Below are positions 2,138 to 39,721 of a stretch of DNA of 39,721 nt, in pieces. Origin of the DNA: an uncultured Anaerolineaceae bacterium (lineage in GTDB: Bacteria; Chloroflexota; Anaerolineae; Anaerolineales; Villigracilaceae); the NCBI GenBank assembly GCA_964585035.1, contig CAZPCR010000002.1:1-39721 (forward strand). The letters are read 5' to 3'. Within the stretch, counting starts at the first letter, position 1. Each line of letters opens with the position of its first letter. Made by a program: the position numbers and the translations under genes. The notes under the pieces were generated by a model. The model had not been told where the DNA came from. It saw only the letters and a program-made list of their open reading frames with translations, and ran no database searches.

Positions 2138-3127
2138 ATGAGTAATAACAAACGTGTCATTATTACAGGCGGGTCCGGCTTTATTGGGACAAATTTGGTT
2201 TCATCGTACTTGGAAAGAAACTGGGATGTCAAAAATTTCGACATTCTTCCCCCTCGCAATTCGGATCATTTAACGAAATGGGTAAAGACAGACTTATTAG
2301 ATCGCGCCGACCTTATTAAAAAGACGAAGGAATTTAGACCATCTGTCTTTTTACATTTTGGGGCTCGAACTGATCTAAACGAAAAGGACAATCTTGCAGG
2401 CTATGCTTCGAACATTGAAGGGGTATGCAATGTTATTGATGCGATACGAGCTGCTTCCTCAATTAAACGAGTAGTATTTGCATCGAGTCAATTGGTGTGT
2501 TATTTGGGATATAGACCCAAGAATGAATATGATTATCGGCCTACAACACTATACGGCATTAGCAAAGTTCTAACGGAACGAATTATCAGGTCAGCAGACG
2601 ACATCGGAGCTGTATGGACAATCGTCCGCCCGACTTCGCTTTATGGTCCCTGGTTTGATGTGCCTTATAAGAATTTCTTCCTCACAATTTCGAAAAATTA
2701 TTACATTCATCCAGGGGAAATACAAATTTATAAACAATGGGGGTTTGTTGGGAACTCCGTTTATCAAATAGAAAAGCTTGTGGATGCTCCCAAAGATAAA
2801 GTTCATAAAAAAATGTTCTACCTGGCAGATTTTAAACCTATCCTATTTACCGATTTTGCTAATCTGGTACAAAGATCGCTGAGTGCGGCGCCTATTCGTA
2901 CCATTAACCCAAACCTACTGAAAATAATGGCGCAAATAGGCGATCTACTTCAGCACATGGGCTGGAAACAACCTCCTCTAACTACCTTTCGGTATCACAA
3001 TATTATTACCTCTGAGCTCCAAAATTTGAAGCCCCTTCAAAGATTGGTGGGTTCCCTGCCTTATTCTCCCGAACAAGCTGTGGCCCAAACTGTAAATTGG
3101 ATGAGACAGATGGAGATGCTTAATTGA
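2138..3127 (+). CDS. NAD-dependent epimerase/dehydratase (extended SDR)
   Basis: Rossmann motif VIITGGSGFIGTNLV and catalytic YGISK (YxxxK). I prefer the ATG at 2138 to the TTG at 2111, which overlaps the upstream stop. Confidence 0.85.
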   Translation: MSNNKRVIITGGSGFIGTNLVSSYLERNWDVKNFDILPPRNSDHLTKWVKTDLLDRADLIKKTKEFRPSVFLHFGARTDLNEKDNLAGYASNIEGVCNVIDAIRAASSIKRVVFASSQLVCYLGYRPKNEYDYRPTTLYGISKVLTERIIRSADDIGAVWTIVRPTSLYGPWFDVPYKNFFLTISKNYYIHPGEIQIYKQWGFVGNSVYQIEKLVDAPKDKVHKKMFYLADFKPILFTDFANLVQRSLSAAPIRTINPNLLKIMAQIGDLLQHMGWKQPPLTTFRYHNIITSELQNLKPLQRLVGSLPYSPEQAVAQTVNWMRQMEMLN

Positions 3128-13533: not shown

Positions 13534-14181
13534 TCAATTCCAGGAATTGATTATTTGTGCCACAATGGCAAATGCAACAGCCACATTAAAGGATCGCTTT
13601 TGCCCTCGCATTGGAAGGTGGGTGATGTGATCTGCAATTTCCAGAATACCCGGATCAACTCCGGTTATTTCATTTCCAACTACTAATAGAAGACATTTTG
13701 GCTTGTGAAAATTGGCAATTGCAGTGTTGATGGCTATGGAATTCCGGGTCTTCTCGAGTGCCCATATTTCATAATCCAAGTTCTTTAAACTGTTAATTAA
13801 TTCAACCGCATTTTTATGCGAAGACCACTTGACATATTGCTCGGCTCCAACTGCCGATTTTCGAACTTCGCTAAGATCGGGAGTCGGTGTAATGCCGCAT
13901 AAATATATGTGGCTGAACTCGAAGCCGTCTGCAGAACGGAATATGGATCCGACATTCAAAGCAGACCGAATATTGTCCAGGAGGACATATAGATTGGTAT
14001 TTAGTGAAATTGGGCGTTTGTCTTGAACTATTTCTTGTGAAGTGGATTGTTCGAATACGGATACCGTTTCTCCTGAACAAACCGGGCATCTTTCACCGAA
14101 TGGACTATCTTTTAAAAGCGGGTAGCGTAGGCCGCATTCTGGACTTTTACAAACCCGAATTTGAAACGAGACAGCAGGCAT
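13534..14181 (-). CDS. SpoU/TrmH-family RNA 2'-O-methyltransferase with an N-terminal zinc ribbon
   Basis: SpoU motifs NVGSIFRSADG, VVGNEITGV and RSFNVAVAFAIV. The N-terminus has CKSPECG...CPVCSG (four Cys). Confidence 0.85.
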   Translation of the reverse strand: MPAVSFQIRVCKSPECGLRYPLLKDSPFGERCPVCSGETVSVFEQSTSQEIVQDKRPISLNTNLYVLLDNIRSALNVGSIFRSADGFEFSHIYLCGITPTPDLSEVRKSAVGAEQYVKWSSHKNAVELINSLKNLDYEIWALEKTRNSIAINTAIANFHKPKCLLLVVGNEITGVDPGILEIADHITHLPMRGQKRSFNVAVAFAIVAQIINSWN

Positions 14182-16820: not shown

Positions 16821-17708
16821 ATGACCGAAATCCGGATTGATGCATTGCTGCCGCAAGAAATGGCTGAACGAGCCGAGCAATTAGGAGCCCGGAAATCCGA
16901 GATGAGTATCCTGAAAACGTTCATGCTTGCAGTCTTGGCTGGAGCGTTTATTTCATTAGGTGCCATTTTTGCTACTACAGTGAGTGCTGTTGGCATGTCC
17001 GTAATGGCGTCTGACGGATCGGTCGCTTATAACACTTCGCTGCCTTATGGGGTGGTCCGGTTGATGGCCGGGCTTGTATTTAGCTTAGGGCTCATCTTGG
17101 TAGTAGTGGGTGGGGCCGAATTATTTACTGGAAACAATTTGATCATAATGGCCTGGGCAAATGGAAAGGTGCGCGGGTTGGCAGTTTTGCGTAACTGGAT
17201 CATTGTTTACGTTGGAAATTTTTTCGGCGCCATCGGCACCGCTGGTTTGATGTTTTTTACCAAACAATACACATTCGGTTCTAATGCAGTTGGGATTACA
17301 GCTCTGAAAACCGCTGTCAGTAAATGTGATTATACGTTTATTCAGGCGGTTGCTCTTGGTATTTTGTGTAATGCATTAGTGTGCCTCGCTGTCTGGCTGA
17401 CTTATAGCGCGCGTACCACGACTGATAAAATATTAGCAATTATCTTCCCGATATCGGCTTTCGTCGCAGCGGGCTTTGAACACAGTATAGCGAATATGTA
17501 TTACATTCCTTATGCATTGTTTATTAAAATCTATGACCCAAATTTTATTGGGACGCTGAACGGACAAGTTGCTCATCTCGAAAAGTTAACCTGGCAGGCT
17601 TTCTTTGTAAATAATCTGTTGCCGGTTACATTAGGGAATATTATTGGCGGATCTGTCCTGGTGGCCGCAGTCTACTGGGTGATATATCTTCGTCGACCCG
17701 GTTCGTAA
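16821..17708 (+). CDS. Formate/nitrite transporter (FNT) family channel
   Basis: Six-TM layout with FVAAGFEHSIANMYY and GAELFTGNN, the FNT signature regions. Confidence 0.9.
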   Translation: MTEIRIDALLPQEMAERAEQLGARKSEMSILKTFMLAVLAGAFISLGAIFATTVSAVGMSVMASDGSVAYNTSLPYGVVRLMAGLVFSLGLILVVVGGAELFTGNNLIIMAWANGKVRGLAVLRNWIIVYVGNFFGAIGTAGLMFFTKQYTFGSNAVGITALKTAVSKCDYTFIQAVALGILCNALVCLAVWLTYSARTTTDKILAIIFPISAFVAAGFEHSIANMYYIPYALFIKIYDPNFIGTLNGQVAHLEKLTWQAFFVNNLLPVTLGNIIGGSVLVAAVYWVIYLRRPGS

Positions 17709-29574: not shown

Positions 29575-30558
29575 TTATTTCTCTTTTTCAAATATATCGT
29601 AATATCCTTTATCCAATTCGTCGTTTGAAAGGTGGGCATAACGCTGAGTGACTTGAATATTGCTGTGGCGGGCTAATTCCTGGGCCAGTTTCAAATTTCC
29701 CGAAGCACGTAATACAGTAGTAACAAAATAATGACGGAACGAATGGGGCGTTATGGTTCCAACAGCCTTAACTCCTAACGCCTGGCGAACCCAAAACTTG
29801 ACAATATTGCGGCCACTGGCTGTTGTAATTGTTTTGATTTTTTTGCCGGCACCTTTGTCGTGACGAGCAAAGAGGGGCAGGGCACCCAAAGGCTTTCCAG
29901 ACTCACCGTCCAGGCTGGCGCGAATTGAGAGATAATCCTTCAAAGCCTTCATTGATCGGGAAGAAAACCTTACAACAGCCTGTTTATCGCCTTTTCCAAT
30001 AATGACAGCCCGTCCCTCGTTCCAATCAATATCACCGCGTCGCAGTCCGCAAGCTTCATGGACTCGTAATCCGGTATCTGCAAGGGTCAATAGAAAAGCC
30101 CTATCCCTTAATGCGCGTAACCGCTCTGTCTCATCCTTGATTAACATTAGTTCACTATCTGTTACAAATCCTAAAACGCTTTCTATGTCGTTTATTGGAA
30201 ATTGCGGTAAACGAATACCTGGTCGTCGGGAGCGTTGATGAATGAGCAGACGTAATCGCGGCAGGTTTATATCGCTTAATCGCTCAGCGGCCATATATTC
30301 GTAAAAACCCGCGGTAGCATGTAAATAGAGTTGTTCGGTGGCAGGAGAAAGGTCTTTGAGATATTTAGCCAGCCAAACAATCGAATCTTCTTTGAGTTCA
30401 TTGACAGGTGTGGAAATTGGGTCAAGATTGTTTTTTTTAAGGACCTTTAGAAAAATATTAGTCGCGTTTTTATAGGTACGGGCAGTATGAGCGCTTCTTG
30501 CAAGTTTGATATTATCAAGGTATTTCGCGATTGAAGCAGATATGGTGGTTTTTTCCAT
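29575..30558 (-). CDS. Tyrosine site-specific recombinase / integrase (XerC/D-like)
   Basis: N-terminal SAM-like core-binding domain. Catalytic residues sit in RDRAFLLTLADTGLRVHEACGLR, HSFRHYF and LARHSNIQVTQRYAHL (R..H-x-x-R..Y). Confidence 0.92.
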   Translation of the reverse strand: MEKTTISASIAKYLDNIKLARSAHTARTYKNATNIFLKVLKKNNLDPISTPVNELKEDSIVWLAKYLKDLSPATEQLYLHATAGFYEYMAAERLSDINLPRLRLLIHQRSRRPGIRLPQFPINDIESVLGFVTDSELMLIKDETERLRALRDRAFLLTLADTGLRVHEACGLRRGDIDWNEGRAVIIGKGDKQAVVRFSSRSMKALKDYLSIRASLDGESGKPLGALPLFARHDKGAGKKIKTITTASGRNIVKFWVRQALGVKAVGTITPHSFRHYFVTTVLRASGNLKLAQELARHSNIQVTQRYAHLSNDELDKGYYDIFEKEK

Positions 30559-30565
30559 ATCGATA

Positions 30566-30593
30566 ATTATACGAATTTACGTTCAAATGTCAA
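30566..30593 (-). promoter_or_regulatory. Consensus sigma70 promoter with an embedded GAAC-N4-ATTC palindrome; leaderless integrase mRNA predicted
   Basis: Minus strand: TTGACA (30593-30588), 16-nt spacer TTTGAACGTAAATTCG, TATAAT (30571-30566), then 7 nt (TATCGAT) to the ATG at 30558. Confidence 0.7.
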
Positions 30594-30699
30594 TGTTTCT
30601 GATAATATTACTTATCAAAAGCATTGGAACTAATATTCGAATTTACTAAAATTTCCACCCCCCCTTCAGCGTCATAAGATAAATAATTTTAAAGGACTA

Positions 30700-34087: not shown

Positions 34088-35577
34088 TCCAGGTCATGAA
34101 ATCTCTTCGAGCTTCAATATCAGGCTTTTTCCAAAGCATCCGTTTCAAGATAACCTTGTGGTTTGTATTGATACTCGCAATTGTCTTAACGGCATTTAGT
34201 GTTTTTATCCTATTTACACAATACCGCGATTATCAATTGGACGCGGTTGGTAATATGCAGGAAAAACTTACTAGGTTGCAGGCTTATTTCCGAAGTGCAG
34301 CGTGGCAAGATTCAAATCTCTCCCCCACGGATGTTCCTAAAAGCCAGGCTCCGCTTCAAACCGGTGACTTAATTATATTGACAGATTTAAATGGACAGGT
34401 TCTTCAAAACTGGGGCGCTGATCTTGCAGAGCCTGATAATATTGTTGGCTCACTTCTACCGGCTGCAGCTCAAAACCAGGATACTCGTGTTTACCAGCAA
34501 ACCATTCCTGTTATAAATAATAAAGATAAGATAAACACCGACTATCTATTTATTATTGTTCCCGTTGTACGCGGTGATGCAATGCTGGGGTTTCTTATTC
34601 TCGGCAGCCCATCTCCTTTGGCCGATCATCTTCGCCGCCTGGCGTTTTCTCTTCTATTGGGAAGTTTGGGAATGCTGGTGGTTGCTTTTCTTGGCGGTTT
34701 GTGGCTGGCAGATCGTGCCATGCGGCCCGTTAAAGCAATAACAAATGCAGCCCGAACGATCAGTGAAAGCGATTTGAATCAGAGATTGAATTTACGGGGC
34801 CATGATGAACTTGCCCATTTAGCGGCCACATTTGATGAAATGCTAAATCGGTTACAAACTGCGTTCGAGCGCCAAAGGCAGTTTCTTGCCGATGCCAGTC
34901 ACGAGCTCCGGACACCTTTGACTGTCGTGAATTTGGAAGTGGGCCGTGTGCTTACCGGTCATCGCACTTCCAGTGAATATCAACATGCATTGCAAACCGT
35001 AGATGCGGAAAGCTCTCGCATGACAAGACTGGTCAATGAATTAATGGCCCTGGCCCGGATGGATACAGGCCAGGCATTATTAAAGTTGGAAGATCTTGAT
35101 CTAAGTGATGTGACCGTTGAGGCGTTTGAGCGCATGTCCCCTTTGGCAGAAAGGCAAAACATCGTCCTCGAGTTGGGCGAGATGCCTGAACTGGCCATAC
35201 ATGGTGACCGTCATTACCTTATTCAAATGATTAGCAATTTGATCGAAAACGGTATTAAATATAGCGGATCGGGGCAAAAGGTGCGGATCGAGAATGGATT
35301 AGTCCACAACAATGATCATGATTTAGCTTCATTGCGAGTCTCAGACACAGGACCGGGAATTGCATCGGAGTTTTTACCTTACATCTTTGACCGCTTCTAT
35401 CGGATTGATTCAGCACGCTCAAGGGAAAATGACGAAGATTCGGACTCACCTACTGGCAGCGGACTTGGCCTTTCGATTGTTGCCTGGATCGTTCAGGTAC
35501 ACAGCGGCAAAATTCACGTAACCAGCACCATCGGCCAGGGCTCGACTTTTGAAGTGACATTACCGATAAAGCATTAA
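34084..35577 (+). CDS. Sensor histidine kinase (two TM helices, HAMP, HisKA, HATPase_c)
   Basis: H-box FLADASHELRTPLT, N-box ENGIKYS and G-boxes SDTGPGI / GSGLGLSIV. It has an ATGA start/stop overlap with the response regulator gene. Confidence 0.95.
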   Translation: MIQVMKSLRASISGFFQSIRFKITLWFVLILAIVLTAFSVFILFTQYRDYQLDAVGNMQEKLTRLQAYFRSAAWQDSNLSPTDVPKSQAPLQTGDLIILTDLNGQVLQNWGADLAEPDNIVGSLLPAAAQNQDTRVYQQTIPVINNKDKINTDYLFIIVPVVRGDAMLGFLILGSPSPLADHLRRLAFSLLLGSLGMLVVAFLGGLWLADRAMRPVKAITNAARTISESDLNQRLNLRGHDELAHLAATFDEMLNRLQTAFERQRQFLADASHELRTPLTVVNLEVGRVLTGHRTSSEYQHALQTVDAESSRMTRLVNELMALARMDTGQALLKLEDLDLSDVTVEAFERMSPLAERQNIVLELGEMPELAIHGDRHYLIQMISNLIENGIKYSGSGQKVRIENGLVHNNDHDLASLRVSDTGPGIASEFLPYIFDRFYRIDSARSRENDEDSDSPTGSGLGLSIVAWIVQVHSGKIHVTSTIGQGSTFEVTLPIKH

Positions 35578-35578
35578 C

Positions 35579-35606
35579 TTGACAATTAGAATAAATGTTC
35601 TATAAT
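35579..35606 (+). promoter_or_regulatory. Consensus sigma70 promoter with an embedded GAAT-N4-GTTC palindrome; leaderless radical-SAM mRNA predicted
   Basis: TTGACA (35579-35584), 16-nt spacer ATTAGAATAAATGTTC, TATAAT (35601-35606), then 7 nt (TTAGAGG) to the ATG at 35614. Confidence 0.7.
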
Positions 35607-35613
35607 TTAGAGG

Positions 35614-36780
35614 ATGAATGCATTTATCCGTTTACAGATGCTCACCCGCCAAATGGATCTGGAACCAGCCGAGGAATCTCGAGAAATACAGGCGACTGAA
35701 TCGCGGCCGGGTTGTTTCACACCTAAACAAAAAGATGCCATTTTTGTACACCCGGCGAAGCTTCCAAACGGTAAAAGTATTAAGTTACTCAAGACTCTAT
35801 TAACTTCCGCTTGCGAGCGGGATTGTTATTACTGCCCGTTTCGTGCTGGTCGCGATTTTCGTCGTGCAACTTTCAAGCCTGAAGAATTTGCCAAAGTCTT
35901 CCTTGAATTGAATCGGGTAGGCATTGCAGAAGGAGCTTTCCTAAGTTCAGGCATCGTCGGGGGCGGCTTGAGGACGCAGGATAAGCTAATCGATACAGCC
36001 GATATATTGCGACGTAAACTCGGATTCCGCGGTTATCTCCATTTGAAAATTATGCCAGGCGCAGAAAAAGCCCAGGTTGAACGTGTTATGCAACTGGCCG
36101 ACCGGGTATCTCTAAATCTTGAAGCTCCAAATACAAAACGGCTTGCGCGCCTTGCACCTCATAAACATTTCCTGGAAGAATTGCTCCGTCCATTAAAATG
36201 GGTGGAGGAGATCAGGCGAAGCCAACCTTCCAGTAAGGGTTGGAATGGCCGGTGGCCGTCAACAACTACTCAATTCGTCGTAGGCGGATCCGACGAGACC
36301 GATCTGGAGTTGCTTTCAACAACAGCCTGGTTGAATAAAAATGTTGGACTCAAGCGGGCATACTTCTCTGCTTTTCATCCCATTGTAGACACGCCATTTG
36401 AGAATAAAGCCCCTACAGACCCGATGCGTGAACATCGTCTGTATCAAGCATCCTTCCTTCTTAGGGATTATGGCTTTGATCTGGAAGAATTGCCTTTTAT
36501 TGATGATGGATTCCTGCCTCTCCATTCAGATCCAAAACTCGCATGGGCCCAAGGTAAATTGAAAGAACAACCGGTTGAAATCAATCACGCAGACCGGAAT
36601 GCCTTGCTTAGAATACCAGGGATTGGACCAAGGGGTGTGGATGCAATAATTCAAATACGGCGCATCAATAAACTCAATGATCTTTCATCTTTACGAAAGT
36701 TAGGTGTGATTGCAGAAAAAGCCGCCCCCTTTATCTTGCTCAACGGCAAACGTCCTGCTTATCAGTCTCAACTTTTCTAA
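35614..36780 (+). CDS. Putative DNA modification/repair radical SAM protein (TIGR03916-like) with a C-terminal helix-hairpin-helix
   Basis: CERDCYYC (CxxxCxxC), FLSSGI, YLHLKIMPG, REHRLYQASFLLRDYGF and LLRIPGIGPRGVDAIIQIRR. Confidence 0.85.
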   Translation: MNAFIRLQMLTRQMDLEPAEESREIQATESRPGCFTPKQKDAIFVHPAKLPNGKSIKLLKTLLTSACERDCYYCPFRAGRDFRRATFKPEEFAKVFLELNRVGIAEGAFLSSGIVGGGLRTQDKLIDTADILRRKLGFRGYLHLKIMPGAEKAQVERVMQLADRVSLNLEAPNTKRLARLAPHKHFLEELLRPLKWVEEIRRSQPSSKGWNGRWPSTTTQFVVGGSDETDLELLSTTAWLNKNVGLKRAYFSAFHPIVDTPFENKAPTDPMREHRLYQASFLLRDYGFDLEELPFIDDGFLPLHSDPKLAWAQGKLKEQPVEINHADRNALLRIPGIGPRGVDAIIQIRRINKLNDLSSLRKLGVIAEKAAPFILLNGKRPAYQSQLF

Positions 36781-36950: not shown

Positions 36951-37478
36951 ATGGATACTACTGCATCTCTTGTTATTCGTACTCAAAATAAATATAAGAG
37001 CTTGGCTACAAAAGTTGCATATAAAAAAGGGGAGATCATTTGCCAGATACCAACCGAATCGCTTTATAACAAACCGAATACTTATACGGTTCAAATCGGA
37101 CGCGAGCAGCACGTGGAAGTAAAGGAATTGGCTTCGATGAATCATTCTTGCGAACCAAGTACTTTCCTCGACACGACTCGAATGCTCGTATTCGCTGCAC
37201 GCGACCTGGTTCCGGGCGATGAACTGACTTTCTTTTACCCCTCAACTGAATGGGAGATGAGTTCTCCCTTCATCTATTTGTGCGGTGCGTCAAGCTGCAT
37301 TCACGTGGTTGCTGGGGCGCGCTTCCTGCCTCTATCTACGCTCGAACACCATTACCTTAACCACCATATTCGTGAACTTATGATTGAATTGTTGAATAAT
37401 ACAGAGCAGCATCTTATGCAATTGGAGCGCGAGAGAAAGTTTGATGTAATTTCACAAAACAATCCACCCATTGCGTAA
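36951..37478 (+). CDS. SET-domain protein (putative protein-lysine methyltransferase)
   Basis: NHSCEPS, GDELTFFY and a post-SET-like LCGASSC. 175 aa. Confidence 0.75.
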   Translation: MDTTASLVIRTQNKYKSLATKVAYKKGEIICQIPTESLYNKPNTYTVQIGREQHVEVKELASMNHSCEPSTFLDTTRMLVFAARDLVPGDELTFFYPSTEWEMSSPFIYLCGASSCIHVVAGARFLPLSTLEHHYLNHHIRELMIELLNNTEQHLMQLERERKFDVISQNNPPIA

Positions 37479-38069
37479 ACCTTCTCGTACGGCTTGTGTC
37501 CGGTTGACGGCGTTCAATTTTAGATAGATTGATGAGACGTGAAATTTAACCGTATGCTCGCTGATCCCCAAAGCAAGTGCTATCTGTTTGTTTGCCAATC
37601 CTTTTGCAAGGTATGCCAGAACCTCAGTTTCTCGATCGGTTAATGGCCCGCGAGCCCTGGTAATATTATCCATTGAAGGAAACAATAATTCGCGCCTGCC
37701 GACGATCAAACCCTGAGATAGAGCTCGCACTGCAGCACACAGCTCGCCGGCAGATGCATCAGTTGACAGAATGCCCCACACCCGTGGAGATGCCATAATA
37801 GATTGAATCTTTGTGGCATCATCCTGTAATAATAAAATTGCGGACGATGAAAGCTCACCTTCCTCTACCGTTGGGTAAACTGCATACGAAGCCGACGTTG
37901 TGATCACCACGTCGGCTTCGTATTGCCCTTCTTGCAAAGAGTCGCTCCATTCGGATCGCTCATCTACGACTTTAATTTCATCATCAGACGAAAGCAAAGA
38001 ACGTAATCCTGCCCGTAAAGCAGGGGAAGGAACGACGAGCAGGACACGGATCAATCTATTTTCTCTCAC
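37452..38069 (-). CDS. LuxR/NarL-family transcriptional regulator with a degenerate (non-phosphorylatable) receiver domain
   Basis: The C-terminal HTH is LTDRETEVLAYLAKGLANKQIALALGISEHTVKFHVSSIYLKLN. The N-terminal receiver-like fold lacks the DD pair (LLVVPSP), the acceptor Asp (VVITTSA) and the Lys. The start is either GTG at 38069 or TTG at 38054. Confidence 0.8.
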   Translation of the reverse strand: MRENRLIRVLLVVPSPALRAGLRSLLSSDDEIKVVDERSEWSDSLQEGQYEADVVITTSASYAVYPTVEEGELSSSAILLLQDDATKIQSIMASPRVWGILSTDASAGELCAAVRALSQGLIVGRRELLFPSMDNITRARGPLTDRETEVLAYLAKGLANKQIALALGISEHTVKFHVSSIYLKLNAVNRTQAVREGLRNGWIVL

Positions 38070-39591: not shown

Positions 39592-39620
39592 TTGACGCCC
39601 TCCCTCCTGTGCTTTATAAT
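39592..39620 (+). promoter_or_regulatory. Sigma70-type promoter for tRNA-Leu
   Basis: TTGACG (39592-39597), a 17-nt spacer, then TATAAT (39615-39620). It ends 19 nt upstream of the tRNA 5' end. Confidence 0.65.
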
Positions 39621-39639
39621 TTCGCCGCATTCCAGGCCA

Positions 39640-39721
39640 GGGGACGTGCTGGAATTGGCAGACAGGCATGACTTAGGATCATGTGCCGCAAGGCGTGTGG
39701 GTTCAAGTCCCACCGTCCCCA
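39640..39721 (+). tRNA. tRNA-Leu (anticodon UAG), class II with a long variable arm. The window ends at the discriminator base.
   Basis: The cloverleaf folds by hand. Acceptor GGGGACG/CGTCCCC, D stem CTG/CAG with loop GAATTGGCAGA, and anticodon stem CATGA/TCATG with loop CTTAGGA. The variable arm is 13 nt and the T arm is GTGGG-TTCAAGT-CCCAC. Confidence 0.9.

Follow-up and report, generated by a model that had tools for sequence, protein, structure and literature searches.

The DNA examined here is a 39,721-nt stretch of an uncultured Anaerolineaceae bacterium (contig CAZPCR010000002.1, positions 1 to 39,721, referred to below as the window), and our analysis centred on the promoter of one gene near its end. 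This gene (35614..36780, + strand) encodes a 388-aa radical-SAM protein with a C-terminal helix-hairpin-helix (HhH) domain, resembling COG4277 and TIGR03916. It is preceded by a histidine-kinase gene, whose stop is at 35577, the promoter beginning one base later, and it is followed by a gene encoding a SET-domain protein. A -35 hexamer, an operator-like palindrome, a -10 hexamer and the start codon are all packed into the 38 bp from 35579 to 35616. On the + strand, TTGACA (35579-35584) and TATAAT (35601-35606), each an exact match to the sigma-70 consensus, flank a 16-nt spacer (ATTAGAATAAATGTTC, 35585-35600), and seven nucleotides (TTAGAGG, 35607-35613) separate the -10 from the ATG (35614-35616) that opens the 388-aa open reading frame (ORF). 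Inside the spacer and abutting the -10 lies the palindromic core GAATAAATGTTC (35589-35600), with the form GAAT-N4-GTTC. The arrangement TTGACA-16 nt-TATAAT-7 nt-ATG, put forward in an original prediction made from this DNA, was found to be exact on re-reading.

Sigma-70 promoters matching the consensus at all 12 hexamer positions occur only twice in the window, in front of the radical-SAM gene and of a tyrosine recombinase gene, while ~0.01 per 39.7 kb would be expected under a first-order Markov model of the window. The bare operator core shows no enrichment, with GAAY-N4-GTTC observed 5 times in the window against 2.9 expected, and 11 matches against 14 expected when one mismatch to the core is allowed; therefore, the count within the window proves nothing by itself. 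An Rfam search of the locus returned no RNA element.

The conservation of this cassette was evaluated in related genomes. A protein scan of the genome collection yielded 80 loci from Anaerolineales/Chloroflexota metagenome-assembled genomes (MAGs), with 66-89% protein identity. Of these, 79 were used, as in the remaining one (L062) the match begins at the contig end and has no upstream sequence; the window was added to give 80 instances. The cassette, or a variant of it, is present at all 79 orthologous loci. A -10 was located 6-8 nt before the start codon in 72 of the 80 instances; within this set it reads TATAAT in 66, and AGAA[T/C]-N4-GTTC adjoins it in 70. The best -35 is found at 16-nt spacing in 39 instances (six of six positions matching in 32, five of six in 6) and at 17 nt in 30. 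Base counts at the arm positions of the 72 aligned sequences (A69 G66 A67 A69 [T44/C21] ... G68 T71 T65 C69) reveal that the true conserved palindrome is TAGAAY-N4-GTTCTA, which is dyad-symmetric, has TAGAACATATGTTCTA as its symmetrised consensus, and takes its last two bases from the TA of TATAAT. In the window this corresponds to the 16-bp operator palindrome TAGAATAAATGTTCTA (35587-35602), which occupies the spacer and extends over the first two bases of the -10. The operator proposed for the spacer is strongly supported, and it is larger than had been claimed; the promoter architecture was likewise borne out, as -35 and -10 are both conserved among the orthologues.

Moreover, the conservation has sharp edges. 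Information content is 0.08 bits per position in the 20 nt upstream of the -35, 0.63 in the -35 region, 1.25 in the operator and 1.82 in the -10, and drops to 0.20 in the six bases that follow; the operator is even more conserved than the first 30 coding bases of the gene (0.84 bits per position). When 532 kb of Anaerolineales DNA were scanned with the operator matrix, 79 of the 84 matches scoring at least 11 bits were at the radical-SAM promoter, with a median operator-matrix score of 20.9 bits. Since it has been kept in some 80 related Anaerolineales species, the cassette is, judging from this comparison, a real and precisely delimited switch conserved across the order. It is this phylogenetic footprint that excludes coincidence, and not the second copy at an integrase gene to which the original prediction had appealed, where the box is weak and unconserved in the orthologues examined.

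Several candidate elements were rejected in the course of the analysis. Further GAAC-N4-GTTC matches in the loci were not accepted as operators, the recurrent ones lying inside the coding sequences of the integrase and the SET-domain protein, where they are conserved as codons. MerR-type control was discarded on the basis of the spacer, which measures 16-17 nt and not 19-20, an ArgR box because the right arm is GTTC and not ATTC, and TAGAAT as a second -10 because it is without a -35 of its own and the DNA upstream is unconserved. A scan of viral contigs for TAGAAYNNNNGTTCTATAAT gave at least 120 matches, about chance level, and was uninformative.

Inspection showed the cassette, or a variant of it, also in the eight loci that have no -10 close to the start. 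Two of them (L010 and L047) keep promoter and operator and have a 50-125-nt insert before the ATG; in L057 the called start lies too far downstream, and resetting it yields a standard cassette; L085, L069, L073 and L083 share a degenerate left arm (TAGCCC) and a -10 reading TAATAT; and L075 has the variant AGAAC-ATTT-GTGC-TATAAT, with right arm GTGC, ~140 nt upstream. Two further loci (L018 and L020), with inserts of 60-340 nt before the start, had passed the -10 distance screen by chance only. Four additional relatives were also inspected: L232 and L235 have the cassette at its standard place, the latter with AGAGT as left arm, L233 has it ~60 nt further upstream, as in L018, and the called start of L234 is the ATG inside the operator. 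Regarding the inserts before the start, which were seen in four relatives and span 50-340 nt overall, that of the closest relative (L010, 89% identity; 2858-3000) holds a hairpin and gives rise to a leaderless upstream ORF of 39 codons, whose stop overlaps the ATG of the gene (ATGA). The insert of L018 (2906-3000) creates a 21-codon upstream ORF, and the remaining two lie at 2931-3000 in L047 and 31-386 in L020.

We then turned to the short interval between the -10 and the start codon. In the 72 instances this distance is 6 nt in 53, 7 nt in 17 and 8 nt in 2, with ATG as start codon in 65 and GTG in 6. Tetramers resembling a Shine-Dalgarno sequence occur there in only three, one of them being the GAGG of the window, which touches the ATG and is unconserved. 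As the length of the interval is fixed, its sequence free, and Shine-Dalgarno-like tetramers nearly absent from it, the transcript is predicted to begin at the AUG or one nucleotide before. The majority distance of 6 nt puts the canonical +1 on the A of the ATG, and the 7 nt found in the window point to either G35613, with a 1-nt leader, or A35614. The claim of a leaderless transcript is supported in silico, but the feature is not peculiar to this gene. Across the window and the loci, there are 67 other cases in which a strong -10 box precedes the ATG of a long ORF by 6-8 nt, the corresponding count at each other distance being mostly 0-11, so that leaderless starts are a common trait of these genomes and nothing special here. 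A TAtaaT signal of leaderless genes had already been published for Chloroflexi (Zheng et al. 2011, PMC3160421). Leaderless-type starts in the window include those of mutS (9597, -) and of a FAD-oxidase gene (10507, +), as well as those at 14181 (-), 15798 (+) and 39534 (-); an OmpR-type regulator family, in this organism and its relatives, belongs to the same type.

The product of the gene matches the Pfam Radical_SAM model with 35.4 bits. Its cluster motif CxxxCxxC reads CERDCYYC, with C67, C71 and C74 invariant, and HHH_3 is matched at residues 318-364 with 24.5 bits, just under the cut-off of 27. Homologues bear the JGI name 'predicted DNA-binding helix-hairpin-helix protein', which is the name of COG4277. 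The radical-SAM motif and the HhH domain fit the designation as a DNA-repair radical-SAM enzyme, but a number of results weigh against it. The match to NCBIfam TIGR03916 (residues 52-380) reaches 275.6 bits, under the cut-off of 343.5. The usual partner gene, TIGR03915/DUF4130, often fused to uracil-DNA glycosylase (UDG), is not adjacent in the window, and no TIGR03915/UDG partner is found among the frequent neighbours in the 79 loci or in four contexts of +/-10 kb. A search of the PDB found no sequence relative of the 388-aa protein, and its AlphaFold model has a mean predicted local distance difference test (pLDDT) score of 66. Foldseek aligned the model, at template modelling (TM) scores of 0.3-0.4, to generic barrels only, namely radical-SAM barrels (LIAS, viperin, BioB, QueE) and those of dihydroorotate dehydrogenase, so that the structure model adds nothing on function. 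The repair role is a label given at the level of the family, for which the HhH domain and the SOS-type control offer indirect support.

Which repressor could recognize the palindrome? No neighbouring gene is universal in the 79 loci, where a LuxR-type regulator is found in 34, HtrA in 29, a SET-domain gene in 24 and a histidine kinase in 16; this makes a dedicated local regulator unlikely and favours a global one. The symmetrised consensus contains GAAC-N4-GTTC, the core of the Bacillus subtilis LexA box (GAACATATGTTC), and it does not differ from the Gram-positive-type LexA box in its core, in the 4 bp between the arms or in its preference for ATAT at the centre. The operator also overlaps core promoter elements, at a position fixed in 70 of the 72 instances. 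Within the Chloroflexota, the LexA of Dehalococcoides ethenogenes reportedly uses the same box, as Fernandez de Henestrosa and colleagues are said to have described in 2002. The box of B. subtilis has been given as CGAACN4GTTCG (PMC3091678). Moreover, membership of the SOS regulon has been reported for the COG1573-COG4277 pair, for SplB-type radical-SAM genes or for both in Verrucomicrobia, Alphaproteobacteria and Bacteroidetes (PMC8565304), and both the core SOS regulon of Gram-positives and that of Balneolaeota include 'a radical SAM protein' (PMC7739468). Because the consensus holds the LexA-box core and the gene class is SOS-regulated in other phyla, repression by LexA is the best reading of the data. 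LexA is probably the protein that would bind the palindrome, in which case the gene would belong to an SOS regulon of Anaerolineales and, by analogy, would be inducible by DNA damage.

A set of observations has to be weighed against LexA. The GAAT-N4-GTTC of the window is one mismatch away from GAAC-N4-GTTC, and among the 72 aligned instances the variable base of the left arm is T (GAAT) in 44 and C (GAAC) in no more than 21, the latter giving GAAC-N4-GTTC wherever the right arm is intact, whereas the right arm GTTC is nearly invariant; this asymmetry may reflect a tuning of repressor affinity. Searches by tblastn with LexA from B. subtilis and Escherichia coli and with E. coli RecA gave no match in the window or in any of the loci. 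None of lexA, recA, uvrA and dinB was found in the window, in ~17 kb of extra flank (7.5-10 kb per side) or in the orthologous loci, and no SOS genes were found within +/-10 kb of the gene in four more relatives.

Searches aimed at LexA elsewhere were equally negative: a protein search with B. subtilis LexA returned Bacillus sequences only, and an X-masked query reduced to the conserved core of LexA returned almost only Bacillaceae. No LexA/SOS regulon of Anaerolineae or Anaerolineales is described in the literature searched. A metagenome scan (GTTCTATAAT, 62-92 nt, back-translated YPPx[VI]REI), whose match is circular by design, gave six contigs and no Anaerolineales lexA among them; five carry one lexA-type gene and were read as Negativicutes, and one is unrelated. 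The lexA-type gene of these contigs (L210-L214; e.g., L211 10700-10965; GC content ~41%) has a ~70-aa product with the LexA N-terminal domain only (MHSDKPAAILKFL...YPPTVREIG...). It stands behind two degenerate boxes, CAAAC-ATTT-GTTCTATAAT and CAAACAAATGTTTG, and is adjoined by an SLH/porin-like gene, which suggests Negativicutes.

Other explanations for the palindrome differ in how well they account for its conservation. It could be the operator of another global repressor, either an XRE- or DdrO-like damage regulator or one governing an unrelated stress regulon. This possibility, which we consider unlikely, draws on the facts that no lexA promoter turned up for comparison in the DNA examined, that the left arm prefers GAAT over GAAC, and that no other site turned up in 532 kb. 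However, it leaves aside the match of core, 4-bp spacing and ATAT centre to the Gram-positive-type LexA box, as well as a gene class that is repeatedly LexA-controlled in other phyla; and, to our knowledge, the known non-LexA damage motifs, namely the radiation/desiccation response motif (RDRM) and the PafBC motif, look different from this palindrome. As to regulators encoded nearby, LuxR-type proteins bind short palindromes, and the downstream LuxR/GerE-type response regulator (37452..38069, -) or the upstream OmpR-type two-component system might act on the site: a LuxR-type neighbour is present in 34 of the 79 loci, and a histidine kinase and response regulator in 14-16. Nevertheless, control by either is highly unlikely, as the operator is found at essentially all loci and no neighbour is, and the upstream neighbour varies between a histidine kinase, an integrase and others. 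In addition, the genes for LuxR and the HtrA protease move together, pointing to an envelope-stress unit of their own, and a similar box lies 5 kb away at the integrase.

Finally, the sequence might bind no repressor at all, the spacer being merely an element of promoter strength, or the true start being the ATG inside the operator, so that the 'promoter' would be coding. Some orthologues do have an in-frame ATG there (ATG-TTC-TAT-AAT, read as MFYN...), and gene callers use it in several of them (L027 2983, L012 2982 and L234 ~9998, P0264); the 6-nt distance in most orthologues is what brings it into frame. In the window and 18 other loci, however, the distance is 7 or 8 nt and the operator ATG is out of frame, so that it cannot be the real start, and the calls made from it add a spurious N-terminal extension of ~six residues. 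The N4 centre is, moreover, often without an ATG. Sigma-70 spacers are not normally conserved in sequence, whereas the conservation of the spacer here is dyad-symmetric, and the region upstream of the -35 is unconserved and without any other promoter. An explanation without a repressor is barely credible on these grounds.

With LexA as the preferred candidate, the locus would operate as a repressor-gated, very strong sigma-70-type promoter, giving a transcript from the AUG or one nucleotide before. A dimeric repressor would sit on the 16-bp palindrome TAGAAY-N4-GTTCTA, cover the spacer and part of the -10, and in this way bar RNA polymerase from an otherwise consensus promoter. Removal of the repressor would allow transcription of the radical-SAM/HhH gene at a high rate, and the leaderless mRNA would be translated without a Shine-Dalgarno sequence. 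Every element has precedent, in the Cheo-type box, in the SOS control of COG4277 and radical-SAM genes, and in the leaderless genes of Chloroflexi.

Like the operator studied here, the Cheo-type operator of LexA (DinR) in B. subtilis and other Gram-positives is a GAAC-N4-GTTC dyad whose centre is A/T-rich, and it lies over core promoter elements, where the bound repressor shuts out RNA polymerase. A single GAAT arm reportedly also occurs in the B. subtilis recA box, according to work attributed to Cheo and colleagues in 1991. The flanks differ, being TA...TA here (TAGAAY-N4-GTTCTA) and CGAAC...GTTCG in the Cheo type, the GAAT arm is here the majority form, and binding of LexA to the present site is a prediction from sequence. 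The SOS-regulated operon of COG1573 (UDG) and COG4277 and the SplB-type genes (PMC8565304) involve the same protein class, combining radical-SAM and helix-hairpin-helix domains, and are found behind an operator of their lineage's LexA type, as is proposed here, with regulation conserved across many species. In contrast to that operon, the gene analysed here is without a UDG/TIGR03915 partner, its product falls under the TIGR03916 cut-off, the operator is of the Gram-positive type, and the mRNA is predicted to be leaderless. Leaderless genes with TANNNT ~10 nt before the start have been described in Actinobacteria, Deinococcus-Thermus and Chloroflexi (Zheng et al. 2011, PMC3160421). They share with the present case a -10 located 6-8 nt before ATG or GTG, the lack of a Shine-Dalgarno sequence and a geometry that is frequent genome-wide; unlike in those genes, the -10 is here fused to a putative repressor site and paired with a perfect -35.

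The second perfect leaderless promoter of the window (30556..30593, -) drives the gene of a Xer-like tyrosine recombinase (29575..30558), the integrase mentioned above. It consists of TTGACA (30593-30588), TTTGAACGTAAATTCG, TATAAT (30571-30566), TATCGAT and ATG (30558-30556), a geometry identical to that of the radical-SAM promoter, with 16 nt between the hexamers and 7 nt before the start. Its spacer contains a GAAC-N4-ATTC box (GAACGTAAATTC, 30573-30584), and the intergenic region also holds a third core of this form (GAACTAATATTC, 30627..30638), at a distance of 54 bp. By chance, ~6e-4 such cores are expected in a given spacer, and ~0.013 in the 234-nt intergenic region (for the core at 30627-30638); these low values make co-regulation of the integrase with the radical-SAM gene plausible in this genome, as far as the sequence can tell. 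The idea that the integrase carries the same cassette was upheld for the promoter geometry, but not for the box, which is inverted, shifted by 1 nt, and scores below 11 bits on the operator matrix as compared to the median of 20.9. Furthermore, it is missing from the nine orthologous integrase promoters examined. Four of these (L080, L027, L029, L232) have TTGACA, 17 nt, TATACT and a leader of ~55-60 nt. The promoters of L033 and L234 are leaderless (TATAAT-6-ATG), L033 keeping only the ATTC arm and L234 being without a box, and those of L058, L079 and L235 have no box either. The promoter in L233 was outside this count, as the called start lies inside the gene. The weakness of the integrase box and its absence from the orthologues examined weigh against the LexA reading, for which the occurrence of a box in the spacer of a second perfect promoter counts as an independent instance.

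Two nucleotides from the integrase -35 lies a dif-like site (30595-30622), which on the minus strand reads GCTTTTGATAA-GTAATA-TTATCAGAAAC, with ATAA/TTAT arms around a 6-bp centre. Integrase orthologues keep this site upstream of the gene. It is precisely at GATAAGTA|ATATTATC that the strains of the source samples part. The allele of L220 and L225 has a ~630-bp insert with an 85-aa Zn-finger-like ORF and a hairpin, ending in a repeat of GATAAGTA, and L226 (ENA ERZ27245399:k141_2363270) has a different insert at the site, while six contigs are 'empty' there, like the window. Although listed at the very length of the window, 39,721 nt, L226 is a different contig; the two share 99.86% identity over 7 kb and diverge at the dif-like site, the integrase of L226 lying 284 nt from the contig end. 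From their sequences, these alleles look like insertions of the type of integrative mobile elements exploiting Xer (IMEX) or of cassettes.

The integrase has XerC as its best match (132.9 bits, cut-off 335); the IntI model TIGR02249 is matched over residues 266-313 only (46.3 bits, cut-off 265). A comparison with integron integrases whose promoters are under LexA control (Guerin et al. 2009 and Cambray et al. 2011, both as cited in PMC3323433) concerns this second copy only. The two have in common a LexA-like box in the promoter of a tyrosine recombinase and a recombination site beside the promoter, and the strain differences by short inserts at the site fit the same comparison. They differ in that the recombinase here is Xer-like and not IntI, the site dif-like and not attI, and the box unconserved in the orthologues examined.

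It is conceivable, although decidedly unlikely, that the damage response of Anaerolineales is wired unlike the textbook one, through an order-wide repressor other than LexA, or through a LexA whose small regulon is built on an orphan COG4277 enzyme and has here recruited a Xer-like recombinase beside a dif-like polymorphic insertion hotspot. Were the small LexA regulon with a recruited recombinase true, it would represent damage-controlled site-specific recombination outside integrons. Apart from this, the analysis provides TAGAAY-N4-GTTCTA as a sharply defined operator with phylogenetic validation, in an order that is large and for the most part uncultured, together with a clean natural example of proposed repressor control over a leaderless gene. 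With the operator matrix, the damage regulon can be mapped across hundreds of Anaerolineales MAGs and start-codon calls can be corrected, as some gene callers begin the gene inside the operator. General knowledge of SOS regulation is left unchanged, and the value of the finding is mainly as a handle on the damage regulon of an uncultured lineage.

Two minor observations concern other sites. In L235, a 65-aa ORF ahead of a second phage-type integrase has the palindrome GAGAAC-GGAC-ATTCTC (17576-17587) ~30 nt upstream, which may represent a further target of the same regulator, carried by a mobile element. At the end of the window (39592-39721), a promoter matching the consensus at 11 of 12 positions (TTGACG, 17 nt, TATAAT) is located 19 nt before a tRNA-Leu (39640-39721).

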